In this document: positions 6,005 through 62,574 of the stretch, one piece after another
Position numbering within the stretch: the first letter of the stretch is position 1
How the letters are laid out: each line of letters begins with the position of its first letter
Assembly: GCF_963506605.1 (NCBI RefSeq)
Contig: NC_083288.1
Coordinates: forward strand, 28,334,001-28,398,000
Source of the DNA: Zootoca vivipara
Lineage: Eukaryota
Direction: 5' to 3'
Length of the DNA stretch: 64,000 bases
Translations under genes and position numbers: made by a program
The notes under the pieces: generated by a model
The model's database searches: none
What the model saw: only the letters and a program-made list of their open reading frames with translations
Told to the model about the DNA's origin: nothing

Positions 6005-7065
6005 GTCTTTATTCAGACCAGGTCTCTCCATGTTTATTAAGCTTGGTAATGAGTGGCAATTCAGCAACTTCTCTTTCCAGTCTGTTTCTGAAAATTTTCT
6101 GTAATAAGACAGCTACTTTGAGATCTTGTATTGAATGTCCTGGGCGATTGAAGTGTTCTCCTACTGGTTTCTCTGTCTTGTGATTCCTGATGTCAGATTT
6201 ATGTCCATTTATCCTTTGGCGTAGGGTTTGGCCTGTTTGTAGAGAGCTGAAGGGCACTGTTGGCATTTGATGGCATACACAATGTTAGAAGATGAGCAAT
6301 TAAATAGTCCTGAGATGGTATGTTTGATATTGTTGGGGCCAGTAATGGTGTTGTCCGGGTGTATGTGGCAGCAAAGTTGGCATCTGGGTTTATTGTAGGC
6401 TCTGGTACCAGTGTCAATGTTAATTCTGGTGGTGGTATTATTGTGGGTGAGGAGTTGCTTAAGATTGGGTGGCTGTCTGTAGGCAATGAAAGGTCTTCCT
6501 CCCAGAGCTTGAGAAAGAGAACTGTCATTGTCTAGGAGAGGTTGTAGATCTCTGATGATGCACTGTACTGTTTTAACTTGGGAGCTGTATGTGATTACTA
6601 GTGGTGTTCTGTTATTTTCTTTTTGGGGTCTGTCTTGCAGCAAGTTCTCTCTGGGTATCAGTCTGGCTCTGTTGATCTGTTGTTTAACTTCATCGGGTGG
6701 ATATTTTAGTTCTAAAAAAGGTTTGCTGTAGATCTTTTAGGTGAGAGTCTCTGTCTGTAGAGTTGGAACAGATGTGGCTGTAACGTAGAGCCTGGCTGTA
6801 TACAATGGATTGTTTGGTATGTTTGGGATGGTAGCTAGAAGCATGTAGATATGTTTGTCGGTCAGTTGGTTTTCAGTATAGGGTGGTGCCTATACGCACA
6901 TCCTGTATTTTTATAGTAGTGTCCAAAAAATGTATTTCTATCGTTAACTGTCGTCAACAGGTTTACCACTCCTATCAGCCAATCACCCATTCCCACTACC
7001 CTTCTGAGTAATACCCCTCCGCACCCTCTGACTATACTTAAGGGTCTGGTGACTTCTGTTTCAGT

Positions 7066-14254: not shown

Positions 14255-15216
14255 GCTGGAACCCATGACACTTCTATCAATATATGAATACCAGCACCTA
14301 ATCCCCCCCACCCCATGCAGCACTTTACATAGGATATTCATAAGACTAAGGGGAGCACTCTCTCCTTGCTACTTGATGTTCAAGATGGCATGATGATCCT
14401 TTATGGTAACTGAGATATTTCCAAAGTCATCCCTTTTCTCCACTGAGCCTTCCCTCTCTGCTGTGCAAGTTAATGCATAGGAGGGAATGGAAAGCTTTAT
14501 CATCCTTCCCCTTCTGGAATTCATTTCACCCCACAAGCTTCCCACCTGCCAAGCCATAGGTTAGTGTATTCGCTGAGCTATTTGGGTTGCTGGTTGACAG
14601 GGCCAGAAAGTATCCCCCCCCTCCCAATTTTATTGAAACTTGGTTGGGTTCACCACCACCACCTTTCTTTCAGTGAAAAGGATGGCTTTCTTTTGTTAGG
14701 TGGGAACTTGCTGTCTTGGTATGGGGGATGGAAACATCACTGGGAAGAATCAATTTAGTAAAAAGGAGAGCCCCCTTAAAGGGCCCAAGGTAGCGGGGAC
14801 TGAGCATGGCACACTCAAACTCAGGTTGGGGTCTCTGCCTGGCTAGAACCCTCATTCTGTTTGCACAGTGAGAACTTGCCAACTTGGCTTGCATCATGAC
14901 AAGCTACACTGGCCAACTCCCATAGTGCAGGCTTGGCTTAGTCCAACTGCTGGATTCCATTCCACTAGCATCAGGCAAGTGGAATGATGCGTTGATCCTG
15001 CCCCTACTGCCATTCCAAGTAGTACCATGCTTGGTGCCATCAATGAAGATTTGGCCTGATTTCATCCCAACTTTTGGTGTCCTGTATGTTCATTTCCTGC
15101 TCTTCTGGGTGAAATAATTCACCTGCCAGGCTAATCTATTAACTTTAATGTTATCTCTTTTTTCAATGATAGATTGCAAGATCTCTTTAATCTCTGATGA
15201 AAGCACTTCATAAACT

Positions 15217-16188
15217 ATGGAACAGACTACACAAGGAAAGCAGATGAATGTTACAGAATATATCCTCTTGGGTTTTGGAAAATTCGGTCAATGGCAAAAT
15301 ATCCTATTTTTTGTTTTCCTATTGATCTATATTGCAGCCATGATTGGGAATGTACTCATTGCAATTGTAGTGGCAGTTGATCAGCATCTACATACACCCA
15401 TGTATTTCTTCCTGGGTAACTTGTCGTGCCTAGAGACTTGCTATATATCAAATGTCATGCCCAAAATGATGGTGGGCTTGTTGACTGAGGAAAATGTGAT
15501 TTCATTCAGTGGCTGTTTTGTACAGTTCTTTTTCTTTGGCTACCTAATGGCAACAGAATGCTATCTTCTCTCAGTAATGTCATATGATAGATATTTAGCA
15601 ATATGCAAACCACTGCATTACACAACAACTATGAATACGCAAATGTGCATCCAGCTAGCAGTTTCTTCATGGATAAATGGACTTATAGCTACTTTAATAC
15701 TTTTGAGTTTTATGCTAGAGTTAACATACTGTGGACCCAATGAAATTGATCATTATTTCTGTGATTCTGTCCCACTTATAAAACTTTCATGTAGTGACAC
15801 CAACCTGGTGGAAGTTGTGAGTTTTGTCCTGGCATTCATATTTACCCTACCACCTTTTCTCCTCACCTTGACATCCTACATATTCATCATAACTACTATC
15901 TTGAAAATTCCTTCTACAACTGGGAGGAAAAAAGCCTTTTCCACTTGCTCCTCTCACCTTATTGTGGTTTCTACCTTCTACGGAACCATCATGATAGTGT
16001 ATATGTTACGAAAGAGAGACACACTCCATGATCTCAACAAAGCCTTCTCTCTCTTGTATACAGTCCTGCCCCCTGTTGCAAATCCTCTTATATACAGCTT
16101 GAGAAATAAGGAGGTAAAGCATGCCATAGGGAAATTATTTTGGAAATATTGCATTCCCCCAAGAAGCTGGAGAGAATTGTTACAATGA
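15217..16188 (+). CDS. Olfactory receptor, class II (OR11/OR6-like), 323 aa, intact
   Basis: LHTPMYFFLGNLS, MSYDRYLAICKPLHY, HYFCD, KAFSTCSSHL, PVANPLIYSLRN; NVT glycosylation site; clear paralog of the 4260 OR. Confidence 0.97.
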   Translation: MEQTTQGKQMNVTEYILLGFGKFGQWQNILFFVFLLIYIAAMIGNVLIAIVVAVDQHLHTPMYFFLGNLSCLETCYISNVMPKMMVGLLTEENVISFSGCFVQFFFFGYLMATECYLLSVMSYDRYLAICKPLHYTTTMNTQMCIQLAVSSWINGLIATLILLSFMLELTYCGPNEIDHYFCDSVPLIKLSCSDTNLVEVVSFVLAFIFTLPPFLLTLTSYIFIITTILKIPSTTGRKKAFSTCSSHLIVVSTFYGTIMIVYMLRKRDTLHDLNKAFSLLYTVLPPVANPLIYSLRNKEVKHAIGKLFWKYCIPPRSWRELLQ

Positions 16189-21995: not shown

Positions 21996-23609
21996 AAGTT
22001 TGGCCTACTAGTGGTCTAGAGATAGCCTACCCCAAGCAGTTCCGTCTGGTCCCAGACACAGGAAATGAAAGTTTTCTCTCACTTTCACCCTAAGGAAAAG
22101 AAAGTTGTCGTGTGGAGATATACCTTTCAATAGCCTCCTCAATGTGATGGTCTGCAGATGTTCTAGATTACAACTCTAATAATGCCTGACCATTGGCTAT
22201 GCTGCCAGGGCTGATAAGAGTTGTAGGTCAAAAACATCTGGAGGCCACCAGGTTGAGGGATGCTGTTGTGCTACAACCCATACCTTTTTGAGTGCATGTG
22301 CTTCTTAACTATGAAGCCCTTACAACTAGGTAATGCCTACTTTCAGACCCTCTAAGTGCCCCTAATTTCAAAGGACAGTCTCAGATTTACAGAAGCCATC
22401 GCCGTTTCTGATTTGATTTTGCAATGTCCAACTTTTCCTTAGAATGTCCCTATTTTCATTGGAGAAGTGTTGGAGAGTATGAAATTATGCAGCCCACCCC
22501 CCACCAAGGAGATAAGTAATTAGACAACCTTTAGAAGGTACTGTATCTGAAGGCAGCCCTGTATAGAGAAGTTGTTTCATATTTTATTATTATTATTAAA
22601 TACTGCATGTTGAAAATTGCTCAGAGTGGCTGAGGCAACCCAGTCAGATGGGTGGGGTATCATCATCATCATCATTATCATTAAATAGAACGTCCCTGTT
22701 TTCATGGGAGAAATGTTGGAGGGTATGGGCACCCCATGTAGCAATTTGGTTATCTGGCAAAACATTCTTCTGGCCCTCAGGCAATTATCCACAAAGCTGG
22801 ATTAATTTTACAGTAAATTCCATGCTATAAGGATAAGTCTATCAATGGGGACTAGCCACAATGGCTATATTCTACAAGCACTGCCAGAGGCCTCTGAATA
22901 CCCGTTGCTGGGAATTAGAAGTGGGGGGAGCACTGTTGCATTAAGGTTCTGTTTGTGGGCTTCCTACAGGCGTCCAGTTGTCCACTGTGGGAACAGGATG
23001 CCATACTAGATGGGACTTTGGCCACATCCAGCAGTGCCCTTATGTTCTTAAGCCCCTTAAATATTTGCTGTAAATTCTTCCTGGCTTATTAACAATGTGA
23101 ACAACAGAGATGTTGTTAAGTGCATCAGCTATAGAGTGGCACTATATCGTCCGCGACTGGACCTAATGGTCAGGGATACCTTTACCTTTTATTTGCACTA
23201 GTGGCAAGAAAATTAAGGGCAACCTTTCTGGGCAGTGCAAGTGCCAAACCTTAGGGATGCTGACTAGAAGGAACATTCATAAATCTTCGACATTGTAGAT
23301 TTGTCCTGGTCAAGTGCATGTAATGTCTTTTGTTTTGTAGCTGTGTGATTTGCACTCGTTTTGTATTGTGCTGGCCATTGGCTATAAACAATAAAACTAA
23401 TTGTCTTATTGATGTAAACAACAGCATTAGACATCAGGCCTTTGTTTTGTACAGTTAAAAAAATAATTTGGCATAACATTCGCCTCTCACTCGTATCTCT
23501 CTCTCCCACCTGCCTGTCACACAACCAATGCTGTACCTTGGAGACTCCCATGCACAGTTCAGCTCCGAACTTTGGTGCCAGAAGGCTTTCTTTCTTCCCT
23601 CCCTCATCA

Positions 23610-24090
23610 ACAAGGCCTCAAGAGTTTTGCCAAGTTATAATTAGGGCTTTTGTGTTTGCTCAAAGCCCTCAGAGAAACTGACAGAACTCTCACTCCCAGA
23701 GGGAGAAGGCTGAGAGACATTCACTCCTATACTGTAATTACTTTGAGTAAAACTTTTTAATGACCTGGGCTGCTGCTAACTACTAAATATGAAGCACCTT
23801 GTTAATCAGGCTACACGTTAATGATAGAAGGTTGTCAAGGGGAACAATAGTAATTTTTTTAAAAAATCATTTCTCATCAGCAGACTCCTGTGTCATGGTC
23901 TGCTTACGAAAGGGCCTAGGAATTATGTTCAGGATGTGATCTAAAGATATATTTACACTTCAACACTATTAATTTCAGTGCAGCCAGTCCAATTTAGCAC
24001 TAAGATGTGTAGGGAGACAACCCTACCAAATTCATTTGGCTTAACCTTAAATTGCCTTATATACTGTCTTCCTAATTGGCAGGCACCGTG
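23610..24090. promoter_or_regulatory. Candidate olfactory receptor enhancer (H/P-element or Greek-island-like)
   Basis: Exact AACTTTTTAATGA at 23751-23763; TAATNN homeodomain sites at 23638, 23735, 23803, 23819, 24073; O/E-like YYYCARRRR at 23616, 23667, 23694; no repeat recognised here. Confidence 0.55.
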
Positions 24091-24224
24091 CATATATTAC
24101 GTTTCCTCCAACCTGCTTCTCCCAGCTCTGCTTGCCCACCATTACACACACACATTTTGGAGAAATATTGAAGATACCTTTGCAAAATTTTATTGTGATC
24201 AGTGAGAAATAAAAATAAAAATAA

Positions 24225-24415
24225 AAAAAAATCCTTCCAGTAGCACCTTAGAGACCAACTAAGTTTGTCATAGGTATGAGCTTTCATGTGCATGCACACT
24301 TCTTCAGATACACTGGAACAAAAGTCACCAGACCCTTATCTATAGTCAGAGGGTGGGGAGGGGAATTATTTTTTGTTTTGACTATGTCAGACCAACACAG
24401 CTACCTACCTGTAAC
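24225..24415. mobile_element. Small inverted Penelope remnant with hammerhead motif (24274-24311, -)
   Basis: - strand pLTR piece 24225-24364 followed by + strand 3' tail gaccaacacagctacctacctgtaac. Confidence 0.85.
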
Positions 24416-24418
24416 AAG

Positions 24419-24743
24419 CAGGGTTGTCTCTAGGCCCAGGTACAGTGGCACGGGGCACCAGGGCGCCAGCCCACCAGGGGCGCCGTTGCGCCCGTTGCGC
24501 CCGCTGAGAGGTGCGGTGGAGGCCGCCCCAGGCACGCATCTCAGTTGTTTCAGCGGCTTCAGGCAGCGCCCCCTGGCCCAGGCCCGGCCCTATGGTCAGG
24601 CTGGATGGTGCAGGGCGCCGGCCCTCCAGGCGGCAGCTGCGCTGTGTGCGGCGCCCACCCACCCTCTGCGCTGGGAAAAAGGGCGGGGGGGCGCTGGAGG
24701 GATCAGTCGTGCCAGGGCGCCAGGTATGCTTAAGACGGCCCTG
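24419..24743. mobile_element. GC-rich non-autonomous hAT-type element
   Basis: TIR cagggttgtct / agacggccctg; perfect TSD gtaacaag at 24411-24418 and 24744-24751. Confidence 0.88.
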
Positions 24744-26749
24744 GTAACAAGTGAGAAATTAAACACATTCAACCACAACCTTTCCTATCCAGTTTCTGTG
24801 GAGGGGATGGAAGGAAGGAAGTGCTTGGGAATGTGTGTCCATTTGCAACCACATAGGAAATAAGGAGGCAAAACACAACCTTGGGTGACTATTAATTTCA
24901 ACACAATAGATTTACAGTAGGGGACAATGGTGCAGGATATTAACTGTTCATAACACACTGTGGTGAGTCTACCTAGCCAAGGGTAAGGGGTAACCCTTTG
25001 CTTAAGCCCCACCTGGAGAGGCCTTCACCCTTTCCTGTTTCACCCTGAGGAATTCACCTGAACTGATTAAAAGATTAAAAGGTGGAGCAATGAGTGATTG
25101 AAGGCTGCAGGAGACACAAGGTTGCCATGTCAGCCATTCCCTCCAACCAGAGGTGGAGCAAGGTGGGGGTGTTTCGCCCTGGGTGTCATTCCTGATGGGG
25201 GATGACATTGCTGTGGGCAACTCCTCTCCAGGACGCTCTCTGCTGCCAGCCCACCCTCTTGGGATGAGCTCCAATGCCGACGCACCCCCGAGATGCGCGC
25301 CGACACCAAGACACACCCCTGGGACACGCGCTGACGCCAAAACACCCCCTAAGGCACACACCAATACCACTAGCTCCGCCTTTGCCTGCCCCTATGGGCG
25401 TTCGCCCCACCCCTGGGCACATCGCCCCAGGTACCCAAGAGGCTTCCTCCACCACTGCCTCCAACATTGGCATAGCACACCCTCCAACATCCTGTAAAGG
25501 AAAATTGGGACGTTTGTCTTTCAGGGCCAGGCTCCCGTACAAGTTACATGAGAGCACGGCCTCTCAAAACAGGTGTCTTTAGGGGCTGTGCTTTTGCAGG
25601 AGCCAGGTGATTTGCTTGAGAGCACCGCTCCAACAAAATGTGTCTCTCTGGGGACCACACTCTCTCGGGAGCCAAATCAGGATATCCCAGGATCCAATCA
25701 GAAGCCAGGGCGGCTTCTGTAATTCTGGGATATCCTGCTCAAAGCAGGGCATATGAGTATGGCACAGTGTGTGGATGTATTCTGACACCAACACCAGGTC
25801 TCCCATTCTCTAAGTGGCTGCAATGGCTACGCATTCCCACAGCGACACCATACATTTAAAAGAATCTCATACCACTTTAAGAGGCATAGCTTTCTCCAAA
25901 GAGTCCTGGGAACTATAGCTTAATAAAGGTACCTGGAATCATTCGGGGACCCATAACAAACTTCCGTTACCCAGATTCTTTGGGGGAAACCATGACTCCT
26001 AAACTGTGCTTTAAATGCATGCTGTGTATGTGACCTACATGTGTACTCTTGTAAAGGGATCTGCCATTTCCTTTGTGTCAGGAGTGAGCCTACCACAGTA
26101 ATGACTGGACGCACCAACTTGGGCCCCAGAAGAGCATGGGTGTCCAGTGGTGTGTGTGCACAACATGACATCATGATGTCACCGCAACGTCACAGTGTGC
26201 ACACACCAGGGCCATGGCGGAAAACTGCACAAGGGCCTCTGCCTCTGTCATGGGGCCTCTGATGGGACCCATTGTGGCTGTGGCTGTGCTTCCACAGCAG
26301 CGGTGGGGTGGAGCATGGGTGCCCTGGTCCAGTTGCCATGGTGGCACCAGTGATGGAAAGAGGCCAGGCACCCACAGTGATAATTTTGTGTGTGCCCAGG
26401 CCCCCAAGACCCCCTGGAAATGGTGCCAAGTGTAATAATAGCCCCCTCCTCAATGCACACATGGATATCTCTTACATCCAGAGCCCCAACATATAGCAGA
26501 AAGTCCCTGGCAAGGTGATGCTCCCTGCCATACAAGAGTTTCTGGCCTTTGCTGAACATGGTTTCTGTCTCTCAATGCAAGCTATAATTTGACTTAATTA
26601 TATGTTCTAGTCCCATTTATTGCAGCCTATGTGGCATTGGTTTTGAAAGGACATGATCACTTCCTTCCAAGGCTCCCTGTACTTTCACTTCATTGATCAG
26701 TTCCTTCCTGTTGGTGATGACCAGGTCTAAGAGAGATGACACCCTTGTT

Positions 26750-40650: not shown

Positions 40651-40965
40651 ACGCAGTAAATTTACTGCCTGAGTTGGCATCAAATTGGTACTGTTACTGC
40701 CATTGCCCTTGTCTCATCTGCCTTCACCTCATCCGGGGCCATAAGCCGGGGTCCGTAGGGCGTTTATTTCACACTTTAATTAGTTATACATCTAGCTGGG
40801 GCCTTATCAGGCCAAGTTAATTTTCTGGCAATTTGCAGTTAGGGTTTGCTCAGGGCTTACTAAGACTTTTCGTTTGGCGCATTATACTGCTCTCCTGCCT
40901 CACTTTGCCTACAGTCAACTTTCATTCAGGATCCTCAGACGCCTCTTTCTCAATTATCAAGTGCA

Positions 40966-42462
40966 ATGGCCCCTAAACGCAAACAGAAGGAGTCCGCAGC
41001 AGCGCCCGCAAAAAGACGCCCTACGAATGGCAACAGCTCTTCCAGCACTCCTGCGTTTACCTCTATTTCTGTTTCACCCGAAGCTTTAGCTAGCTTATTC
41101 TCGGGCGTCCAGAGTTTCTTTCAACAGGTTTCTAGGCCGGGTGTCACCATTCAAGAAGTCCCCACGGAAGGGTCTCCTGACTTCATTGCCGAGACACCCA
41201 CGGCTGAAGCTGCGCACCCCGGGCCTTCATCGGCTATTCCCCAGGAACAGACTAGGCGTATGGAAACCAGGTCCCAATCTGCCGCTGCGGATGTGGCCCC
41301 TGCCGGTGCCAGGGACAAGACTCCTTCTCCCGCTGCGGGTAACACTTATATTTCCCAGCTGTCACCAGGTACCCCTGCTTGTCTGCGGACCCAGCCGCCT
41401 GATTCCCATAATAGGTCCAGGCGTCTCTCGTCGATTACATCCTATGATAGTGATGCCCAGGACCAGGCGAGAGCTACGCAGTCTCAACAGGACACCGCTC
41501 AGCAGGGCGACCAGGAGAAGGGGAAGACGAAGAAGACGGGTCTGAAGAAAACTAAGAAGACCAAGCACACGGAGCCGGAGGGTGACTCAGGTACTTCCTC
41601 TTCTAGTTCCGATGAGGATGAAGGAATTCTAGATGGGTACTGGGGCCAGGGGGAAGATCTGATTGGTTTGCCTCTTTGGGCACACGAGCGGAGGGCTAAC
41701 TCACACCGCAAAACCTTTAATGGCACATTGGAGTGGAAAAATGGGGCTTTGGTGGAAGATGTAAAAACTTCCACTTTTGTATCTTCTGACTTCATTATTG
41801 GGAATCATTTGTCTAGCAAGAAAAGGAATAAGATCCTGAATGGGGATTTTGTTGACATTTTTACCCTCTTGCCACCCGCAAAGTTAAAGGGAAAAGGGGA
41901 AAAGAAACACACATATGGAAAACGTAAATATAGGGAGCCTAGGGCAGAGTGCACCTTCGAAAATTGGTTGGACGGTTTCCAGGTATATATGGGTACCATA
42001 GTGGCTTGTTATCCAAAGAGGGCAATGCACCTCGTGGCCTATATGGCTCATGTGAGACGTGCTTACGAGTTGGCTGGGGAGGGACCGGCTCTCCTGTATG
42101 ATGAGGATTTTCGAAGGAACGCCTCCCTTTTGGCCACCACCCGTTGGGACCTGCGTGACCAGAACTTCTGGGGTGAGCACGTTAACCCTTACATTGAAAA
42201 GAAACACCCAGAGGCATCCCGATATGCAAAATTTGAACCAAAAAAACCAAGCCGCCGACTAGTGTGCTGGGAATTTAATAAGGGCACGTGCACCAGAGCA
42301 TTCTGCAAATATAGTCACGAGTGCGAGAGGTGCCAAGGGGCCCACCCAGCGTCCGCTTGCTTCAAGGGCCAGCAGTCCTTTCGTGGGGGTCGCGGGAACT
42401 TTCGGCAAGGCCCGAAAAGTGCAGCAGCCCAAGGACCTGGCCACACAGCCAACAGATACTAA
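40966..42462 (+). CDS. Gag-like ORF1 of the Ngaro-like element, 498 aa
   Basis: Basic NLS-like N-terminus, Ser/acidic tract, C-terminal CCCH plus CCHC-like fingers (CWEFNKGTCTRAFCKYSHECERCQGAHPASAC), RGG tail. Confidence 0.88.
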   Translation: MAPKRKQKESAAAPAKRRPTNGNSSSSTPAFTSISVSPEALASLFSGVQSFFQQVSRPGVTIQEVPTEGSPDFIAETPTAEAAHPGPSSAIPQEQTRRMETRSQSAAADVAPAGARDKTPSPAAGNTYISQLSPGTPACLRTQPPDSHNRSRRLSSITSYDSDAQDQARATQSQQDTAQQGDQEKGKTKKTGLKKTKKTKHTEPEGDSGTSSSSSDEDEGILDGYWGQGEDLIGLPLWAHERRANSHRKTFNGTLEWKNGALVEDVKTSTFVSSDFIIGNHLSSKKRNKILNGDFVDIFTLLPPAKLKGKGEKKHTYGKRKYREPRAECTFENWLDGFQVYMGTIVACYPKRAMHLVAYMAHVRRAYELAGEGPALLYDEDFRRNASLLATTRWDLRDQNFWGEHVNPYIEKKHPEASRYAKFEPKKPSRRLVCWEFNKGTCTRAFCKYSHECERCQGAHPASACFKGQQSFRGGRGNFRQGPKSAAAQGPGHTANRY

Positions 42463-44074
42463 TTTGTCCCTGTCCTTGGCGTTTTCTCCTATCAAACTCC
42501 TCCCTTTAAAATCATTATTACAACTATATCCCGATAGGCAAGCAGCAAAGTATTTGTGGGACGGATTTTCTTTGGGCTTCAGAATTCCAGTAGCAGTACC
42601 ACCAGTTTCGGGTGACCCACCAAATCAAAAGTCAGTACGGGACATGCCCGAGGTAGCCAGAAAGAAAATCAATAAGGAAATTAAAGCGAATAGAATAGCT
42701 GGCCCCTTTTCCTTCCCCCCGCTGCAGGACCTTCATGTTTCCCCACTGGGTGTTGTCCCTAAAAAGATCCCAGGTGAGTTTAGATTAATTCACAATTTAT
42801 CTCATCCCAAAGGCTCCTCAGTCAATGATGGTATCCCCCAGGAGCTTTGTACCGTTAAATACGCCTCCTTTGACCAGGCAATAAAGCTTATTAGGAAATT
42901 TGGCAGAGGCGCTTTATTGGCAAAATGTGATATTGAATCTGCATTCCGCTTGCTGCCAGTTCACCCTCACGACTTCAGGTGGCTGGGATTCAAGTTTGAG
43001 GGGGCGTATTACGTTGACAAAGCAATGCCCATGGGGTGTTCAGTAGCATGCTCAGCCTTTGAATCGTTCAGCACATTTTTGGATTGGGCACTCAGATTTA
43101 GAACAGGCCTCGAGGGCGTGACACATTACTTGGATGACTTCCTTTTCTGCGGGCGGGCTCTGAGTGCGGATTGTGCTTATCTCCTTGAAGCCTTCGCATC
43201 CCTGACCGCAGAGCTGGGCGTACCTTTGGCTGCAGAAAAAACTGAAGGACCGGCATCCACCATAACGTATTTGGGCATTGAGTTGGACACCGTTGCCCAA
43301 ACATCCCGATTACCCCCAGAAAAATTAGCGGCCCTTAAGCAAATTATTTCGGAGACACTTCCTCTCAGGAAAGTGACTCTGAAACAAATCCAATCCCTCC
43401 TGGGTCACCTTAATTTTGCCTGCAGAGTGGTGTCCCCAGGACGTCCCTTTTGCGCAAGGCTTGCTAGACTGTCAGCAGGACTGCGCGCGTCTCACCATAG
43501 GGTGCGCCTCAATAAAAGTGTAAAATCCGACCTGAAGGTTTGGTTACAGTTTTTAGAAAAATTCAACGGCATCTCTTTGTGGCAGGACACTTTGAGTTTA
43601 AGAGTAGATTTCCAGGTACACTCTGATGCTGCGGGTTCTCTGGGTTTTGGAGTATACTTTAAGGGCAGATGGTGCGCCCAGCACTGGCCTCCGCAATGGA
43701 AGAAGAAACCCCTCATTCGCGATCTAACATTTCTGGAATTTTTTCCCATAGTTGTAGCGGTTCATTTGTGGGCAGACGAGTTCAAGAACCATCGGGTATG
43801 CTTTTGGACCGATAACCAGGCTGTGGTCAACGTTCTCTCAAGACAATCTTCACGATCTCCCAGAGTGTCCGTTTTGCTGCGGGCCTTTGTGTTGCTCTGC
43901 TTGCAATTGAACATCTATTTCTCTGCCAAATTTGTACCCGGTGTTAATAATGATATCGCGGACGCTTTATCTCGTTTCCAGATGGACCGCTTCCGCTCTC
44001 TTGCTCCAGAGGCTCAGCAGTTGCCGGAGGCGTTCCCGGAACATCTATGGAATCTTGGGAACGAGACGTGCTAG
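42383..44074 (+). CDS. Reverse transcriptase-RNase H ORF2 (no ATG at 5' end)
   Basis: SPLGVVPKK, FRLIHNLS, AKCDIESAFRLLP, MPMG, YLDD, YLGI; RNase H SDA, EFFPI, TDN, NDIADALSR. Confidence 0.95.
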   Translation: MGVAGTFGKARKVQQPKDLATQPTDTNLSLSLAFSPIKLLPLKSLLQLYPDRQAAKYLWDGFSLGFRIPVAVPPVSGDPPNQKSVRDMPEVARKKINKEIKANRIAGPFSFPPLQDLHVSPLGVVPKKIPGEFRLIHNLSHPKGSSVNDGIPQELCTVKYASFDQAIKLIRKFGRGALLAKCDIESAFRLLPVHPHDFRWLGFKFEGAYYVDKAMPMGCSVACSAFESFSTFLDWALRFRTGLEGVTHYLDDFLFCGRALSADCAYLLEAFASLTAELGVPLAAEKTEGPASTITYLGIELDTVAQTSRLPPEKLAALKQIISETLPLRKVTLKQIQSLLGHLNFACRVVSPGRPFCARLARLSAGLRASHHRVRLNKSVKSDLKVWLQFLEKFNGISLWQDTLSLRVDFQVHSDAAGSLGFGVYFKGRWCAQHWPPQWKKKPLIRDLTFLEFFPIVVAVHLWADEFKNHRVCFWTDNQAVVNVLSRQSSRSPRVSVLLRAFVLLCLQLNIYFSAKFVPGVNNDIADALSRFQMDRFRSLAPEAQQLPEAFPEHLWNLGNETC

Positions 44075-44961
44075 AGGGAGTACTGGCGTCGGTTGCCCCC
44101 TCCACTCTTAACACCTATAAAAAGGCCTGGTCTGATTTCCGGTCCTTTCGCGTTAGGACCACGGGTTCAAATGGAGACACACCCCCCAGTAGGAGGGAGG
44201 TCCTAGCGTACTTAGCCGGTTTAAGGAGACTGGGCAGGGCACCCAGAACCTTGCACATTCAAACAGCCGCTATCTCCTTCTTTAGTAAGGCCAGCTATGC
44301 AACGGACCCTTGCGCGGATTTTCTGGTGCGCAAAGCTTTGGAGGGCTGGCGCAGGCTCCAGCCTCCGCGCAGGGATAATCGGAAACCCATTACTTTTGAA
44401 TTATTATTCCAAATTCACAAACAGCTCAGGAAGCTGTGCTGGTCAAAATATGAGGCAAGACTTTTCTCAGCAGCTTACTCTTTAGCCTTTTTCGGTGCGC
44501 TCAGGGTTGGTGAGGTGGTGTGCGAGGGATCCCCCGCCCAAACCGCCAAGGGTATCTTGTTATCTGACCTAACGTTGACAGAAAAGGAAGTGTTAATTCA
44601 CATCCGCCAATCAAAAACGGATCAACTGGGTAAGGGCACCTCGATGCGCTTGCCAGCTACAGGCCATTGCGGCCCCTGTCCCGTAAAGGACACTAGGCGT
44701 TTTCTCCATTTGAGGCCCGCCTCACCCGGTCCGTTTTTAATTCACCAGGACGGGTCCTGTTTAGCCCGCCACCAATTTACCCGCGTTATGCGCAGGGCTA
44801 TTGCTGCATGCGGTCTTCCTCCCTCTGATTTTGCAGCACATTCATTCCGTATTGGTGCTGCCACAACTGCGGTACATATGGGTTTGTCTGCAGAGAGAAT
44901 AAAAGATCTAGGCCGTTGGAAGTCCAAAGCGTACAAGGGGTACCTCCGATCTTCAAAATAA
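44047..44961 (+). CDS. Tyrosine recombinase ORF3, 304 aa
   Basis: Catalytic R (LRVGE), K (SKTDQ), H-x-x-R (HSFRIGAAT), GRW, Y (AYKGY); overlaps the end of ORF2. Confidence 0.95.
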   Translation: MESWERDVLEGVLASVAPSTLNTYKKAWSDFRSFRVRTTGSNGDTPPSRREVLAYLAGLRRLGRAPRTLHIQTAAISFFSKASYATDPCADFLVRKALEGWRRLQPPRRDNRKPITFELLFQIHKQLRKLCWSKYEARLFSAAYSLAFFGALRVGEVVCEGSPAQTAKGILLSDLTLTEKEVLIHIRQSKTDQLGKGTSMRLPATGHCGPCPVKDTRRFLHLRPASPGPFLIHQDGSCLARHQFTRVMRRAIAACGLPPSDFAAHSFRIGAATTAVHMGLSAERIKDLGRWKSKAYKGYLRSSK

Positions 44962-45022
44962 GCACTTCCGTTTTCGGCTGTTGGCTGACGTTCCCTTTAC
45001 GTTCCCTTTGTTTCCTTTGCAG

Positions 45023-45594
45023 AAAAACGCGTAAACATCTGGTTCATTGGTCATAGCATCGTGCATTGGGCCCGGGCTCGCGCTTATGATCGGAGAATGG
45101 GGCCCAGCCTAGGGTTGCCATCATGGGTTAGAGTGTCCTGGATCACGAGACGGGGTATGCGTTGGAATGAGTTCCTGCCAACCGTGAAGTCTAGAGCCGC
45201 TATGCTGGGCCCTCCCGATATTCTGGTGGTGCAGCTGGGCGAAAATGATTTGGCTTATCGCTCTGGCCAGGATTTAAAATGGACTATCTTTGCGGACTTT
45301 GATGGCCTGCTGGCGGATTTCCCCAACTTGACAATTTTTTGGTCCTCGCTGATGGAGAGGCGAGTTTGGCGCGACTGCTTTTCGCCCGCTGCTGTAAACA
45401 AAGCAAGGAAGTTTCTGGATATCGCTGTGGCCAGAAAGGTCTTGACCTTGAATGGACATTATATACCGCACCCGGACATTAGGTTCAATGAGCTTTCGTT
45501 ATACCGTGATGATGGCGTCCATCTTTCCGATGATGGGAATGACATTTGGATTTCTGATATACTAGGTGCTATTAGGAATTGGTTGCGACTGTAA
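45023..45594 (+). CDS. SGNH/GDSL hydrolase ORF4 (probable spliced terminal exon)
   Basis: Frame extends upstream of the listed GTG: KRVNIWFIGHSIV (block I Ser), RRG (block II), QLGENDL (block III), DGVH (block V); preceded by branch point, pyrimidine tract and CAG (45020-45022). Confidence 0.85.
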
Positions 45595-48024: not shown

Positions 48025-48138
48025 GATGTCTCCCAGTTGGATTGAGGGGAAGTATATTCAAATCTTACAAAACACACATAAAACACTTCTTTTTGTTTTT
48101 TTTGTTTTGTTTTCTACAGGCGGAAACACTCTGCACAT

Positions 48139-49068
48139 ATGGAGAATCAAACCCACATCACTGAGTTCATCCTCTTAGGCTTCTCCAGTGATCCAAAGCT
48201 CCAGATCGTACTCTTTGCAATCTTCCTGTTGATTTTTTTGATAACTCTGTCTGGCAACCTGGCCATCATTTTGGCTATAAGAATCGATGCTAATCTTCAC
48301 ACTCCCATGTATGTCTTCCTTTCTCATTTGGCTTCCCTTGATATTGCTTTTTCTTCTGTTACAGTTCCTAAAATGTTAGAAGACTTCCTTTCGGCCAGAA
48401 AAGCAATCACCGTTGATTGTTGTTTTACCCAGGTCTTCTTTGTCATGACGCTTTCAGTGGGAGAAGGTCTCCTCCTCTCTGTGATGGCATATGATCGGTA
48501 CACAGCCATCTGTCACCCCTTGCATTATAACGTGATGATGAGCAAACGGGTCTGTTTGCAGCTGGTGTGCCGTGCATTGTTCACAGGCTTTCTTTTTGCT
48601 CTACTGAACACCCTTCTGCTAACAACTCTGCACTTCTGCAGGGCCAATGTAATCCATCACTTCAGCTGTGAAGCCCCACAACTGTTCAAACTTTCCTGTA
48701 GCAGCACTTTTGCAAACCAAATGGTGATTTTCACCCTTGGCTCATTTTTAGGGATGGGGGCTCTCTTGATCACACTGGCTTCCTATATACACATCATCTC
48801 CGCTGTCTTGAGGATACGCTCCATGGAAGGGAAACGCAAGGCCTTTTCCACTTGCACATCTCACATGACAGTTGTTGTGCTGTACTATGGAACAATTTTC
48901 TTCAGGTACCTGAAGCCGACCTCAAAGAACTCTCAGGATCAGGAAATGGCTCCCTCTGTCATTTACTTTATTGTGATACCCATGTTAAACCCCATCATCT
49001 ACAGCCTCCGTAACCAAGAAGTGAAGAGAGCGCTACATAATATGGTGTGCAGAAAATTTAACAAATGA
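48139..49068 (+). CDS. Olfactory receptor, class II (OR5-like), 309 aa, open frame
   Basis: LHTPMYVFLSHL, MAYDRYTAICHPLHY, HHFSCE, KAFSTCTSHM, PMLNPIIYSLRN; acceptor ttttctacAG (48118-48119). Confidence 0.96.
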   Translation: MENQTHITEFILLGFSSDPKLQIVLFAIFLLIFLITLSGNLAIILAIRIDANLHTPMYVFLSHLASLDIAFSSVTVPKMLEDFLSARKAITVDCCFTQVFFVMTLSVGEGLLLSVMAYDRYTAICHPLHYNVMMSKRVCLQLVCRALFTGFLFALLNTLLLTTLHFCRANVIHHFSCEAPQLFKLSCSSTFANQMVIFTLGSFLGMGALLITLASYIHIISAVLRIRSMEGKRKAFSTCTSHMTVVVLYYGTIFFRYLKPTSKNSQDQEMAPSVIYFIVIPMLNPIIYSLRNQEVKRALHNMVCRKFNK

Positions 49069-49219
49069 AGATATTTAATTCTCTTTCAAAGTTCATGTAG
49101 TTGGCATTCTCAAATGACAAACTGGCATTTGCTCACCAAATACATTTTGAGAAGCACCTTCTGTCTTCTACCTGTAGCACAGAGCATCTCCTTTGCATGC
49201 AGAAGGTCCCAGGTTCAAT

Positions 49220-49221
<2 letters not shown>

Positions 49222-49260
<39 letters not shown>
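49222..49260. repeat. (TA)n microsatellite
   Basis: Direct reading. Confidence 0.95.
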
Positions 49261-49263
<3 letters not shown>

Positions 49264-49539
49264 TGTAAACAAAAATGCATTATTGTGCAGGGTAATGCTT
49301 TGCTGGGGGGGGGAATAATAAGTCTGTATTTGAGAAAATCACATGGGGAGAGATTTGTGCTACTATGCTGGTGAATTTTCACGAGGCTCTGTTGTTGTTT
49401 TTCCATCATACACTGATGTGACTATCTGGATAACAAAATTTAAGTTTGGGGGGGGAAATGAGAAATCGGTAGAAATTGAATTTTATGTATTCCCTCATTC
49501 CTAGCTGCTAGTCAATGTATAAAATACTAAACTAGATTA

Positions 49540-50670
49540 AACTCCCTTGCACATAATCTGATTATGAATGAGAAGTGTTATCTAGTCTGTCAGTGAGATC
49601 TGGGTGGGTGAGCAGGGTGGAGTTAGTCTACTGAGCTGTGCTCCCCTGGGTACTCAGTGCAGCTTCAGGGTGGGGGGAGGGGAGTTGCTGTAGTCTATAG
49701 AGATTCCATCTCTCTCACCAGGCTCTCTGTCCAGTTTAGGAGTAGGCGTAGTTTAGGAGTAGGAGTAGAATCTAGCATGTGTGTTCCTGATATTGGGCAA
49801 TTAGGGCAGATTATAGATTATGCTGGTTTACTGGCCACATCACTGCCCAGCAGCTTCCCTGCCTGATCTGACAGAGCTGGTGTTGAGGACTCCCAGACTG
49901 CTGGTTCTGGAGGATTTTAACATCCATAACGAGGCGGCTGGCTCTGTAGTGGCTCAGGACTTAATGGCTGCTATGACGGCGATGGGGCTGTCCCAACATG
50001 TCACTTGCCCAACGCATGTGGCAGGCCACAATCTGGACCTTTTTTGGTCAACTGGGCAGGAAGAGGGAGATCTGAAAGTGGGGAACATCCCTTGCCATGG
50101 TCAGATCACTTCCTGTTGAGCCTTAGGCTTTCAGCATTTTTTCCCCTTTGCATAAGCGGAGGACCTAAGACGATGGTCTGCCCTCCGAGGCTGATGGATC
50201 CAGTAGGCTTCCAGGTGACTCTGGGGGATTTTCCGGCTGATATGACTGGCACTCCTGTTGAAGTCCTGGCCAACCTCTGGAATATCGGGCTGTTGACACA
50301 AGCATTCCTGAGCACCCGCTCCCTGTTACTCCAGAGCTTAGGGCAAGAAAGCAAGCTGGTAGATAGCTCTCATACAAGTGGAGGAAAGACCTGGCTGAAT
50401 GCAAGATGGTTTGAGCATATTACGCTGATTCTGGCCCAACTGCACTGGCTGCCAATTAGTTTCTGGGCCCAATTCTAAGTGCTGGTTTTGACCTATCAAC
50501 CTTAAATGGTTCAGGATTGCAATACCTCAAGGACCACCTCTCCCCCATGAACCAACCTGGACCCTATTATCGTCATCTGAGGCCCTTCTTCATGAGCCTT
50601 CTACATGAGAAGTCCAGAGGGTGGCAAGGCAAGAATGGGCCTTTTCTTTGGTGGTTCCCCATTTGTGGAA
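49540..50670 (+). mobile_element. Degraded, internally deleted L2-like LINE
   Basis: APE motifs GGGRGVA, DFNIH, PTHVAGHNLDL, SDH; C-terminal HITLILAQLHWLPI. Confidence 0.7.
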
Positions 50671-50688
50671 TTTTGGATCAGAAAAATA

Positions 50689-50872
50689 CTGCGTTTCTCC
50701 GAAAATAAGCCATACCCTGAAAATAAGCCATAGTGATAGGCAGTTTAACCTTGTAGGTTAAACTGTACCATACTTAATAAAAAAAATAAGACATCCCCTG
50801 AAAGTAAGCCACCGTGTGTGTTTTTGAGGAAAAATAAATATAAGACAGTGTCTTATTTTTGGAGAAACACGG
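50689..50872. mobile_element. Tc1/pogo-type MITE
   Basis: TA|ctgcgtttctccgaaaataag...cttattttttggagaaacacgg|TA. Confidence 0.85.
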
Positions 50873-51033
50873 TACTATATAAGCAGATAAAACCAACACC
50901 CAACATCCACTGACAGGAACAGTGAATTCATTTCTCCTTCAGCCTATTTTCATTCCATGTCAGTTTCAAATGTGCTCTACCATAGGTTTGTCCAGTCCTA
51001 GATTTTGTGGATTTTAAAAAGTGTTTGTATGTA

Positions 51034-51072
<39 letters not shown>

Positions 51073-52151
51073 TTTGTACACACTTTCCTCTAAAGTATTT
51101 ATTTTTGTACACACCCTCCCACTTAAATACACATTTTTGTATGCTTTAAAAAACAAACCCGAGACTGTATTTCTTAATTTAGAGAAGTACATAACTCGCT
51201 TGATAGGTGTTTACAAGTCTGGGACCAGCAAAAGCCTCTTTGTTTTAAACTGCAGACTGAACAATTCCCCCCTCCACTTCTTTTCCTACTAGATCTGTCC
51301 ATACCATGTTCAGAAATCACAGAAAGAGGCTCCTACTTAAGCCTCAGCAGGAGAAGAACACAGGGAAGAACATGCCCATAGCACAATAAGAATCTAAATA
51401 AAGGAGCTATACTCATCCCTAACACAATAGAACGTCACCAAATATAAAGTGAGTAATCACACATGAAAGTTCCTGACATGATGCAAGTGACAAGAGCTAA
51501 TTCTAGATAAGAAAAATAAAAAGTGGTTGGCTATGCTACTCAGTTCTGTAGATGGTGGGCAAAGGGTTACAATTTACCCTTTTCCCATCACGTAAAAATG
51601 AACATGTATGTGTTCATTGTCATCAACTTTTGAATATTTATTTGCTTCTTATCAAAATAGAAATTGATTATTTAATCTTCACCAAAGGAAGGATAATATT
51701 TGGGCTTCAAAATAAATTGGGAGAAAAAATGCTATCTGAGAATGCTTTTTCACACACATCATACTCTCCAAACTGGTACATCTCCTGGGTCTGCACTCCC
51801 GCTTCAGTCATGGATCTGGAAAAAGTATAATTTTCCGGCACAGCATCCCAAAATGCACATTTTGGAGCACTGCGTGAGATCATGGACCTGACCTGAAAAA
51901 CACACATTTGGGGGCACTGTGTGAGATTGTGGACTAGAAAAGGTGTTGTTTGGCTGGGGGAGAGCTCGGCTCTAAATCACGTAAGAGTATGGCACCCAAA
52001 ATGGCCACCATGCTCTTGTGGAGGAAACTGGGATGTCCCAGTTTTTCAGGGACAGTTGATGGGTATGACACTCTCTCCAACATACTTCTTCCAGCAAATG
52101 AAAATTGAAAAGGTCCAAGGATATTTCTCAATGATAAATAAATAAATCTAT

Positions 52152-53129
52152 CTATCTGTGCCATTCAGCGTTAGTGAGGGGCACTGAGATTTTGAGGAGG
52201 GCACTTGTGCTACAGAAAGCTTTTCTTAAAGCTCCCTTGACCTCTTGATTTCTCAGACAGTAAATGAATGGGTTCAGCATTGGAGTGACAATGGTGTATA
52301 TGACAGAAACCAATTTATTTAGATCAAAAGGGTGGATTCTCTTTGGTCTGGCATACATGAAGAGAGTGGCTGAGAAGAAGATGGTGACCACAGTGAGGTG
52401 AGCAGCACAAGTAGAGAAGGCTTTCTTCCTGCCTTGGACAGTTGGGATACGCAAAATGGTACCAATGATACACACATAGGAAACTATTGTAACTGAGAGT
52501 GGGACCAGCAGAATTATCAATGCCAAGACAAAGTCCACTATTTCAGCCACTGTCATATCCTCACATGCCATATTTAGCAAAGGTGAAATGTCACAGAAGA
52601 AGTGGTTGATGATGTTAGGGCCACAAAAGGGTAGGCGAGAAATAAATAAAACCTTCAGCATTGAGGCGAAGAAGCCAGTTAGCCACGAACCCACAGCTAA
52701 CTGCAAGCAAAGGCGCTGGGTCATGATGGTTGGATAGCGCAGTGGATTGCAGATGGCCACATATCTATCATATGCCATTACAGCAAGAAGGATACACTCT
52801 GTACATATGAGAGAGCTGAAAAAGTAGAGCTGTGTCATGCATCCTTCAAATGAGATGGACTTGTCATCCACCAGGCAGTTGACCAATAGTTTTGGGACAA
52901 TAACACAGATGTACCATGTCTCCAGGAAGGAGAGGTTGCTGAGGAAGAAATACATAGGTTTGTTAAGCTGAGGGTTGATTTTGATCACAACAATGATAAC
53001 TGTGTTCTCCAGGAGCGTCAGGATGTAGGCCACAAGGAATATCACAAACAGAAGCAGTTGCAGTTCCATGGTGCTTGGAAATCCAAGGAGGATGAATTCC
53101 CGGACAACACTCTTATTCTTATGGTCCAT
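52152..53129 (-). CDS. Olfactory receptor, class II (OR6-like), 325 aa from MDHKNKS
   Basis: [61 protein letters not shown]; the listed upstream 15 aa lie in the intron pyrimidine tract (AG at 53135-53134). Confidence 0.96.
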
Positions 53130-54532
53130 GGATCTACAGCAATAGAAAGGATGAAGACAGGAAAAAATAGGCATGATGCATCCTTATCATTTTGATATCC
53201 ACAGAGGTCGACTGCCTTGTTTCACAATTTCTTTTACTCTGAAGCTTTGTGGCTCATTCTAGAGTCTTCCAAGAGTGGTTACATAACAAAATTATTTTGG
53301 GATTCATCAGAAGAGCACTAAATTATGCTTCAGGGTTTTTTTTAAGCATTCTTGCCTTTAATTTCCTGGATAATTTTCAGAAAATATCTGTCTCATCTTG
53401 TTTAATCATTTTGGACTAAATTGGTGTTTAGGGGGTTGATACTGTTAAATAGGTTGATTTGATTAATTTGGTTTCATGGTTAAGTTGGTCACATTCAGGG
53501 AGGTGCAGGAAAGGTCAAGGTTAGATAAGGTATCAGGTGAGCACCCCTGGGCACCTTTGACCACAAAGGGCATTTCCAGAGGCCAGTTCCATATCCACTT
53601 AGGCTGGATATGAAGCATTCTTGAAACTCACCTGCCACATGTGCACAGAGTTCTGAAACCCAGGAGTGAGGAAGGAAGAGCCCCCTACTTGACCATAAGG
53701 TGTGTCCCAGTCTTTGGGGCCTAGCCTTCTTATGCCCCTTAGAATTGGCAGGGTTTGTCTCACCCAATGCTGAAATTAGGATCCCATTCTTCTCATTTGC
53801 CCTACAGACATAGTTTAAATAAAATGTGGCCCTAGTCCAACCCATCACTTATATCTCACTTCTTCATTTTTGGGTCAGGTCACAAATTATATTGTGTTTA
53901 GAGAAGGTGAGGGGATGGTGTCCAAGAAGTGATTCTGATCAATATAAAGATTCCTAACTGGATATGGGAATCATTTGAAATGCTTGTTCTGTGCAATGGT
54001 ACCTTCTTAATTTGAGATGGGCCATCAGCACAAATCTTACATGCCACTTTTGAAGGAATCTTATATTTTATATAATATTTCAAACAAAGCCTGAGGTGCT
54101 TTCAGACAGCAGATTCTCAAAACCAGCAGACCTTTGAGCACATGTCAGTAGAAGAGTAACACCTCTTGGTGGTGTTAAGTTCTACTTCTGTTCCCATCCC
54201 ATAATGTCATGTGGAAAGCAGAGGATAGATTTAACTTAAAAGCTGTGATCCTATACAAGGCTGTAGTCCCATTCATTGGAAGTCCCAATGAATTCAGTGG
54301 GACTTATTTCTGAGTTTATAAGCATAGGATTGCACTGTCAGTATCCTATTTGCACATTGTTTCTTGTAAATGTTTGTTGTTTTGTATTTAGTGAGTCTTA
54401 AAAGTCTCCAATCATGGAAGCTTAAAATTAAAGTTGAATTTTACATTACAACATAAATTATGAAGTGGCTCACAGATATAATAGATAACTTAAAAAGCAT
54501 GGGAATGTTCTCTTGCATTTTGTGATGGCTAT

Positions 54533-54567
<35 letters not shown>

Positions 54568-56232
54568 TTTATTTAAAAACAACATGTACTAAAAATAGAA
54601 AAAATCAATAGTTAAAATATCAATTAAACTGATAGCATTAATATATACATTTATATACCTATAAAAAAACTGTTTAACACATACCAGTAAATACACTAAA
54701 AACAGCACAGAACCTTACATTCAATAACAGCTATAGAAACAATTCTCCCAAACTCTGTTCATTAATTTGGATTGCATTTTATGGCTACAAGTCTTCCACA
54801 TGAGAATTTACCAAACCTTGATTATTATTTTTTAATTCTATGAAAATGCATTCATTCTTCTTCTTTTTTTAAAAAAAAAATCACTCAAATTTGAACATGC
54901 CATACAGTTTGTCTTAGATTTGTGTTCATTAAAGTTTAAATATCCATCTTTCCGCATTGTAAAATGTGGGACAAATAATGCATTTCCTGAAATCTAGAGG
55001 TATATCATAATTGTTGAAGAAACCATCTTCTTTCGGATTTACAAAAGCTGAAACTAAGAAATGCAATGGAATGTGAAGTTCCTCGCTTCCCACCTCACTG
55101 CATGATTTTTTCTCTATTATTACTTGCAGATAAAATTTCTGCCACATTTCAGTAACATAACTCTTTATCATTAAAAAGGAGATGAGAAGATTTTCAGAAG
55201 TGAAAGACAAGGTGGCCTTAATTTCTGCAGTGATATGAAAAGTTATATTTCAGGATATTGGTTCCAGCAGAGAGAGAGATACTGATTCCTTTCCAGAGTT
55301 CTGTAACTGAAAGATCAGCACACATCTCCCCCAAAAGAGTAGCAATCTTGCATCACATTTGCAAGCAGACTTTGGACTATTTAGGAAATGTTTTCAAAAG
55401 CTTCACTGTGTATGCCAATATTCTTGTGCAAAGATTAATTAACTCACAGAATTGGGAATAATTTATATGTGCATTTCCCATTTTAGCATTACTTTCATCT
55501 TCAACATAATTTAACACATATAAAGTGGTTTACAAAATATAAAAACCAATTGCACAGACATTAAAATATGAAATACATCCCTCCTTAAACATACTTCCTT
55601 TTTAAAGTGCTAAAACTAATGCAGGACGTTTTCTATTTATTAAAACAAACAAACCCTGAAATAAACAAAATAAGCCAGTTGAATCCTTTACCTGATCTAC
55701 ATGAGAACTCCAATGAATATTTCATCATATGCTGGGTGGTATCTTTTTGGTTAAATTTTGAGCAAGTCAAATTTCTCTTTTTCTTTTAACTTAGAGCTTC
55801 TTTGAAGACAACTTGGAACTGTGTTGGATTAAACTAAGGCTAATCCAGTAAGAAGTTATGATGAAAAATTTATGCAGCCTTACCAAAATCATTAGAATTC
55901 TCAGAAGAGCAATGCTGCTTGAACTGCCTTGGTGTATAAGTTATCCTGCGAACAAGGGATATCAAGGGAGCCAAATACTCAGGAACTGGCTCATAGAATG
56001 CCTTTGCAAATGCAGCTGACAGGATAATAGCTCAGAGTTATACTTTATTATTTGACTTCTGCACACCATGAAATGTGTAAACAAGATGCTATTGTAATTT
56101 ATACTGTTCTGAAGCACGAATGTACTTTAAGAAATTCAAACCTGTGCCCATTCACATGGTCAAAACTGTGTAAGTTAAGAATTCAAGATTTTTATTCTTG
56201 AGCTACAGCTTTTATTTATATATAAGTTCAAG

Positions 56233-58089: not shown

Positions 58090-58203
58090 CCTCCCTCCCA
58101 TCCTTCTCTCTCTCTTCCCTCTCTCTATTTCCCTCTCACCCCCTGGGGGGGCACCAGAAGGTGATCTCGCCTAGGGTGCAAAAAAACCCTAGCACCGGCC
58201 CTG
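58090..58203 (-). mobile_element. Terminus of the 20002-family hAT element
   Basis: Reverse complement of cagggccggtgctagggttttttgc.ccctaggcgagatcacc. Confidence 0.75.
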
Positions 58204-58914: not shown

Positions 58915-58955
<41 letters not shown>

Positions 58956-59129
58956 TATCATTCCAGATTTGGAAATTAGGTGATATCAAATGAACTCATT
59001 GAAGCATATTCCTACACTTAACATTTGAAAACAATGATACATCACTTCAAGGAAAACAACCAAGTGAATGATATTTATAAATTGAAATTATTTTTTTCCT
59101 CCCCTTTTAATATACACATTTTAACATTA

Positions 59130-59361
59130 CCATGTTTCCCCAAAACACTGTTTCATATATATTTTTCCTCAAGAAGACACACTATGGCTTATTTTCAGGG
59201 GATGTCTTATTTTTATTATGCAACCAGCCTCGCCTCTTCCTTGGCGCCCTCCAGAACTATCCCTATGTCTTATTTTCGGGGTGTGGCTTATATTGCACAA
59301 ATGCTTAGAAAACCTGCTACAGCTTATTTTATGGGTATGTCTTATTTTTGGAAAAACAGGG
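59130..59361. mobile_element. Tc1/pogo-type MITE (degenerate)
   Basis: TA|ccatgtttccccaaaa...ttttggaaaaacaggg|TA. Confidence 0.65.

Positions 59362-59559: not shown

Positions 59560-59561
<2 letters not shown>

Positions 59562-59620
<59 letters not shown>
59562..59620. repeat. (TA)n microsatellite
   Basis: Direct reading. Confidence 0.95.
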
Positions 59621-61614: not shown

Positions 61615-62574
61615 CTAATGGTCACTAGTGGTAATCGTGGTTTCAGCATTCCTGCTACAAAATATCTTTTTCATGGCTTCCTTCACATCCTGATTCCTGA
61701 GGCAGTAAATGCATGGATTCAACATGGGGGTGACAATTGTGTATACAATGGACACGAGCTTATTGAGATTAAAAGAATGGATTCTTCTTGGTCGGGCATA
61801 CATGAAGAGAGTGGCTGAGTAGAAAATAATAACCACAGTGAGGTGTGAGGCACAGGTGGAAAAGGCTTTTCTTTTCCCCTTGGCTGTGGGGATACGCAAA
61901 ATGGTGCCTATTATGCACACATAGGAGCCAATAGTGACAGACAGTGGGATTATGAGGATAAGGAGGGCAAATACAAAGTCCACCATCTCAGCCACAGTTC
62001 GGTCCGTGCAGGAGAGGTTCAGCAAAGGCGAGATGTCACAGAAGAAATGGTTGATGATGTTGGGTCCACAGAAACTCAAGCGGGAAATGAAGAAGACTTT
62101 CAGCATTGAGATTAGGAAACCAGCAAGCCAAGATCCCACAGCTAACTGCAAACAGAGCCGGGAATTCATAATGACCGGGTAGCGTAGTGGGTTGCAGATG
62201 GCGATGTAGCGATCATAAGCCATGGCAGCCAAGAGGACACACTCGGTGCAGACTAGGGATATGAAAAAGTAGAGCTGGGACATGCAGCCTTCAAAGGAAA
62301 TGCTTTTGTTCTTTGCTAGGAAGTTAACCAGGAGCTTGGGAACAGTCACAGAAATGTACCAGGTCTCCAGAAAAGACAGGTGGCTAAGGAAAAAGTACAT
62401 AGGTTTTTGGAGATGGTTGTTTGTCCTGATCAGAGTGATGATCACAATGTTCTCCAGGAGGGTCAGGATGTAGATGACAAGGAAAATTACAATGAGCAGT
62501 ATTTGGAATTCTATGGCAGTGGGGAATCCAAGGAGAATAAACTCCTGGACTCTGGTCTGGTTTTCCAGCTTCAT
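61615..62574 (-). CDS. Olfactory receptor, class II (OR6-like), 319 aa from MKLENQT
   Basis: Same motifs as, and close paralog of, 52152-53129; acceptor cttgttcttcAG at 62591-62590; the listed 77-aa extension is intronic read-through. Confidence 0.96.

Follow-up and report, generated by a model that had tools for sequence, protein, structure and literature searches.

A single-copy, constrained candidate enhancer with the extended homeodomain site of mouse H and P in a lizard class II OR cluster

The OR cluster and its gene-free interval

The window, by which we mean the whole stretch of 64,000 nucleotides analyzed, covers C13:28,334,001-28,398,000 of the 1.44-Gb genome of Zootoca vivipara. 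It holds five intact OR frames, those at 4.2, 15.2, and 48.1 kb on the forward strand and those at 52.2 and 61.6 kb on the reverse strand. The frame nearest to the candidate element on the left, at 15214..16185 (+), is a class II OR, and the nearest on the right, at 48082..49065 (+), is family-5-like according to database names; both are candidate targets. An OR6B1-like gene lies at 61618..62574 (-) and an OR6B1-like paralogue at 52155..53183 (-). The gene at 61618..62574 has close relatives in lizards, snakes, tuatara, turtles, crocodilians, and birds, matching a Zootoca vivipara record at 99% and most of the other sauropsid records listed at 70 to 89%. Relatives of the family-5-like and OR6B1-like genes in 48082-62955 appear to share contigs in the squamates Python, Varanus, Eublepharis, Tiliqua, Elgaria, and Heteronotia and in Alligator sinensis, a sign that this neighborhood may be an old microsynteny.

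A tblastn search of positions 16185 to 48082 (31,897 bases) found neither an OR nor an OR pseudogene, bearing out the OR-free interval of about 32 kb that had been noted when the DNA was read from its letters. The surrounding 554 kb contains 63 OR-like stretches, spaced mostly 2 to 10 kb apart, and three large OR-free gaps of 96, 41, and 32 kb, and the candidate element is inside the 32-kb gap. Long open frames in the 96-kb and 32-kb gaps, 51 in one scan and 139 in the other, gave mobile-element domains and low-complexity matches, and no other gene family appeared among the long open frames scanned in OR-free gaps, a scan that short exons would escape. The 96-kb gap (C13:28.242-28.338 Mb; loci L043 to L051) adjoins the window on the left and carries LINE, LTR/chromodomain, and Tc5/DDE fragments.

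Mobile elements are also present in the window. At 40864-45591 (+) there is an apparently intact tyrosine-recombinase retrotransposon of the DIRS/Ngaro-like type with overlapping frames of 532, 603, 335, and 201 amino acids; the 603-amino-acid frame is a reverse transcriptase by Pfam, and the labels recombinase and hydrolase, given by eye, are what we take the corresponding products to be. Fragments of Penelope-like GIY-YIG retroelements were recognized by eye at 6212-6736 and 60398-61075, and a short repeat that begins at 24213 is related to them.

Motif content and sequence constraint

The segment from 23410 to 24210 is essentially single-copy, with one match in the genome and a flat, single-contig depth from about 23438 onward in relatives. 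Repeats flank it at about 23200-23410 on the left and from 24213 on the right. The sequence-only reading had described a segment with no recognizable repeat, and that description survives: repeats occur only at the flanks, and a transposable-element origin of the element was rejected given the one genome match and the single contigs in relatives. A search for paralogous copies among the compared genomic loci gave short chance matches only, and Rfam gave no match over the core.

The 13-mer, the five homeodomain cores, and the three O/E-type sites named in the sequence-only reading are all present where they had been placed. The 13-mer, AACTTTTTAATGA, occupies 23751-23763 (+) and is the sole match in the window, even when one mismatch is allowed. 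It had been called the extended homeodomain site of the mouse H and P elements, and it matches that site exactly as given in the available text of the mouse reports (PMC7804114, PMC5638857). The three O/E-like sites lie on the forward strand at 23616..23624 (CCTCAAGAG, a predicted Ebf site), 23667..23675 (CCTCAGAGA), and 23694..23702 (TCCCAGAGG), and none has a listed change in relatives. The third is one mismatch from YCCCNNGGGR, the consensus given in the text available of PMC8213819. A TAATTA at 23638..23643, a predicted Lhx2/Emx2 site that does not form a strict composite, likewise has no listed change. The second TAATTA, at 23735..23740, is unchanged and adjoins a 5-base gap of the relatives, and TAATGA at 23819..23824 (+) is unchanged between differences at 23817 and 23825. 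The distal TAATTG at 24073..24078 (+) shows no change among the differences listed (40 of 135). The remaining core, TAATCA at 23803..23808 (+), is indeed present but is broken by a T>C change at 23806 in 6/6 relatives compared and is probably nonfunctional. Four conserved homeodomain (HD) sites and three conserved O/E-like sites thus fall within 23616-23824. Single motifs of these kinds are common, with strand counts in the window of 140 for YYYCARRRR and 127 for TAATKR.

Sequencing runs of seven other organisms share 27 to 35% of sampled 31-mers, and six runs were compared, one per organism (six of the seven). The relatives are 90 to 95% identical, with a divergence of about 5 to 7% per run; because the runs were chosen for shared 31-mers, some long identical stretch is favored. 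The footprint statistics use X11, X13, X15, and X19 (four runs from three studies) and omit differences near the aligned ends, which number 2 to 5 per run and of which two are known, 23885-86 in X11 and X19. For X19, the listed differences together with 23885-86 make up all 18.

An invariant core block at 23590..23721 has no listed substitution or indel in these four runs, the invariance of 23590-23609 being firm only for X19. Between 23610 and 23721, 0 of 112 positions changed, compared with 24 of 159 at 23722-23880 (Fisher P = 1.4e-6), in relatives that are close, with many changes shared and not independent, and with the adjoining few hundred bases as the only control. The scan-corrected P value for the longest gap is 6.5e-5, or 9.5e-4 with clustered changes merged, and the scan of X11 alone, over 881 bases, gives 0.03. 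The block contains all three O/E-like sites and one TAATTA. It is followed by a variable spacer, 23722..23734, in which 5 bases at 23730 are absent from 6/6 relatives. Beyond the block, changes hit 0 of 25 motif bases and 24 of 134 other bases (P = 0.015), in a test that counts the broken TAATCA among the nonmotif bases. Around the 13-mer, 23748-23768 is unchanged in 4/4 runs, and changes are found at 23746-47 and 23769-70. The earlier reading had staked its enhancer on conservation, and the motif core does prove to be constrained in related organisms, being conserved more than its flanks at the shallow depth of relatives that are 90 to 95% identical. A search of metagenome host DNA for the 13-mer with the O/E pattern gave 20 matches, none alignable beyond the motif, a result that is not evidence of absence. 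The stretch 23590-23830 is a single-copy, selectively constrained noncoding element in a lizard class II OR cluster.

The 13-mer by itself hardly exceeds chance and is weak evidence. The exact 13-mer has 247 copies in 1.44 Gb, or about 1.1% per 64 kb, compared with 137 for a reversed control. The chance of under 1% per 64 kb estimated previously needs a small correction, and the argument built on it is weak, and rarity was rejected as evidence given 247 genome copies, some of them LINE-borne. At 10 of 30 unselected copies, the 13-mer sits in the reverse-transcriptase frame of a LINE that we call RTE-type from a reading of its translation. Such copies were seen at L003, L009, L032, L033, L034, L040, and other loci, two of them inside the C13 OR cluster, and this LINE could seed extended homeodomain sites; the LINE-borne copies have no neighboring O/E and HD clusters. 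OR clusters contain three copies in a scored span of about 8 Mb against about 1.4 expected, in a comparison of all 247 copies by hand with 138 scored of 803 candidate OR positions, and the two copies other than the candidate element lie in LINE; enrichment in OR clusters was rejected on these figures. With no such enrichment, the case for the element must rest on its context.

That context is uncommon in the cluster. At least three O/E and at least three HD (TAATKR) sites per 220 bases, thresholds set after the element had been seen, occur together at 3 places in the 554 kb; of the other two, one is in DNA judged by eye to be repeat-like and one is a short way upstream of an OR. The one near an OR, a weak group of HD with O/E-like motifs at L057:1243-1460, is about 0.4 to 0.6 kb upstream of the OR start and is possibly an OR promoter. 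No locus among the 30 unselected 13-mer loci combines three O/E with three HD sites nearby; one has three O/E sites but a single HD site.

Enhancer reading and alternatives

A single-copy stretch that carries the motifs of mouse switches and is better preserved than its flanks is likely to be a reptile OR switch. By analogy with the mouse elements, and with moderate confidence, we read the element as an H/P-like Lhx2/Ebf enhancer of the class II OR cluster that would act in olfactory neurons. The sequence-only reading had proposed an OR enhancer here, and this is partly supported, in that the element is not a transposable-element fragment and its motif core is constrained, whereas the appeal to rarity is weak and TAATCA is broken.

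The mechanism that we propose is modeled on the mouse. The four conserved homeodomain sites, among them the extended 13-mer, would be occupied by Lhx2 (or Emx2) and the three O/E-like sites by Ebf (O/E) dimers, and these factors would jointly keep the element open inside a silenced cluster. Via Ldb1, the element would contact nearby OR promoters, and this contact would raise the chance of a neuron choosing one of the nearby OR genes. According to the available text of the mouse reports, H and P require their clustered HD and O/E-like sites, J has such sites too, and multiple HD sites with neighboring O/E sites define all three elements (PMC5638857). In the same body of text, transgene expression rises when the extended site is supplied in tandem copies (PMC7804114), and Lhx2 and Ebf cobind the Greek Islands and keep them open (PMC5608512).

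It is also conceivable, though we consider it unlikely, that the forward-strand OR at 48.1 kb has its promoter and first exon here, displaced by insertions into a long first intron. That OR has a splice-acceptor-like tract directly before its ATG, and mobile elements are present in the interval between the two. In the mouse reports, as far as their available text goes, the same 13-mer is found in the P3 promoter (PMC7804114), and OR promoters bear HD and O/E sites but lack the composite (PMC11643329). However, the distance to the 48-kb OR is 24 kb, when 2 to 10 kb is typical between whole OR genes here, and a pattern search of 23700-24960 returned no strong donor-like site. Moreover, 18,469 of the 23,880 intervening bases were unmatched by a small repeat library, one that missed the 5-kb retroelement at 40.8-45.6 kb.

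We think it quite improbable that the motifs cluster by coincidence in neutral single-copy DNA, with an invariant block that reflects a fluctuation or a mutation cold spot. The invariant block coincides with motifs that had been named before any comparison was made, and at 4/5 of the sites outside the block the changes lie directly beside the site and not inside it. With only one CpG in the comparison stretch, CpG decay cannot account for the contrast. What speaks for coincidence is the number of copies of the 13-mer (247), the commonness of O/E-like and TAATKR words, and the shallow divergence of nonindependent relatives, one of which alone gives a P value of 0.03. There is, finally, only a slight chance that the element is constrained for another job, as a non-olfactory homeodomain enhancer, a boundary, a noncoding exon, or a short coding exon: conservation names no tissue, the open-frame scan would miss other genes' short exons, and some reading frames are open across part of the core, but the neighborhood yielded nothing other than OR genes and mobile elements, Rfam gave nothing over the core and one weak match (E = 0.87) in a flanking repeat, and the core is unchanged even at would-be silent positions.

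Comparison with known OR-choice enhancers

The enhancer reading that we prefer places the element beside the mouse H and P elements, with which it shares the exact extended 13-mer as printed in the available text (PMC5638857, PMC7804114, PMC8213819). As in H and P, several HD sites and neighboring YYYCARRRR sites fall within about 200 to 300 bases of class II intergenic DNA, a likeness of motif and layout. The lizard element is intergenic, nonrepetitive, and in an OR cluster, as is usual for the H/P type, and it combines the extended 13-mer with several HD motifs and, close to them, O/E-like sites in about 300 bases. Elements of this type are further expected to drive expression in olfactory neurons, and their deletion to lower the choice of nearby ORs. 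The genomic position is different from that of H. DAD1, which presumably marks the TCR-alpha/H region as in the mouse gene order, lies among other ORs at C13:45.48 Mb, while the element is at C13:28.36 Mb, 17 Mb away. The element is thus not beside the TCR-alpha/DAD1 locus and cannot be filed as H. No exact 13-mer was found in C13:42.03-46.9 Mb, and a search for an H-like element near DAD1 revealed no convincing cluster and no V-segment pattern in the 300 kb sampled of about 610 kb. A genome search for the TCR-alpha constant domain gave no match anywhere, a result that carries no weight either way. We regard the element as probably a lineage-specific or convergent assembly of the shared grammar and not a positional orthologue of H.

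With the Greek Islands, as presented in the available text of PMC5608512, the element shares an intergenic cluster of HD and O/E sites inside an OR cluster. ATAC and ChIP data serve to define the Greek Islands, by open chromatin, joint binding of Lhx2 and Ebf in mature olfactory neurons, and trans contacts, and 35 of 63 carry a strong Lhx2-Ebf composite (PMC5608512). In the lizard element, no Ebf site directly adjoins an Lhx2 site at the spacing of the composite. No conserved TAAT site anchors an exact match to the published composite pattern, and a stricter pattern has none, both being string patterns and not the original weight matrix. One exact match to the published pattern lies in the element at 23787, against a background of 3.7 matches per kb, and this fuzznuc pattern was rejected as a criterion because it is too loose.

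One island invites closer comparison. The published probe for Sfaktiria contains AAAACTTTTTAAT, identical by eye to 13 consecutive bases of the element (PMC5608512, supplementary file 7, in the part available). The element is 28 to 38 kb from the OR6B1-like pair. Mouse Sfaktiria appears to lie near Or6b1; the position of mouse Olfr449 relative to Sfaktiria was not found in the 15 of 29 supplementary files searched. The 13 bases shared with the Sfaktiria probe, together with OR6B1-like neighbors across sauropsids, make descent from a common enhancer possible.

In the account available from PMC5638857, mouse J has beta-type class I genes on one side and alpha-type ones on the other, with Stim1 and Rrm1 as neighbors. 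It has an extended site, HD1, which resembles the 13-mer, and a composite site, HD2 (PMC5638857, PMC7804114). The element shares the HD and O/E grammar of J, but J acts on class I genes beside Rrm1 and depends on its composite site, whereas the element belongs to a class II cluster and is without a strict composite. In the lizard, the RRM1 exons occupy C4:100.288-100.298 Mb. Two class I ORs with lower scores and a fragment come next (100.304-100.319), and the main class I run extends from 100.335 onward; the beta and alpha assignment of these genes is one that we infer. Between the RRM1-adjacent class I ORs and the main run is a single-copy stretch, C4:100,328,100-100,328,340 (L119:8100-8340), with an AACTTTT word, AACTTTTAATG as an extended-HD-like site, a TAATTA that directly adjoins the O/E-like palindrome GCCCTGGGC, and a TAATGA. 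In its motifs this array resembles the J element, and it stands at what appears to be the syntenic place of mouse J. In the roughly 1.04 Mb scanned, a strict composite pattern has 5 occurrences, one of them in the C4 array, a count that is partly circular because the last pattern position was widened to admit the C4 site. The J motif AAACTTTTC has no exact match in the array. The candidate element and the J-like array are different loci, on C13 and on C4 at about 100.328 Mb, and an array placed as synteny with J would predict suggests that the same enhancer grammar is in use in this genome.

The OR-choice enhancers described in the available text of seven reports, namely H, P, J, the Greek Islands, and the TAAR elements, are mammalian (PMC7804114, PMC5638857, PMC5608512, PMC8213819, PMC8213717, PMC11643329, PMC13113109), and the deepest conservation reported there is that of J, to platypus (PMC5638857). 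No reptile or bird OR enhancer was found in the literature searched, whose coverage takes in few subscription journals. Zebrafish OR enhancers were reportedly described by Nishizumi in 2007. Reporter assays for OR enhancers are already in use in zebrafish and mouse, and a lizard candidate of 250 bases that shows a clear footprint, together with a J-like array, makes the involvement of the same enhancer system in singular OR choice in a reptile directly testable. We offer as a tentative idea, one that we would not expect to hold, that the element and a mammalian island beside OR6B1, such as Sfaktiria, come from one ancestral enhancer and that the RRM1-adjacent C4 array is the true J orthologue, the two belonging to an amniote-old set of OR-choice enhancers. 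Switches as old as the amniotes date back about 320 million years, and such a set, if real, would extend the known history of these enhancers to that age, beyond the platypus limit of J.
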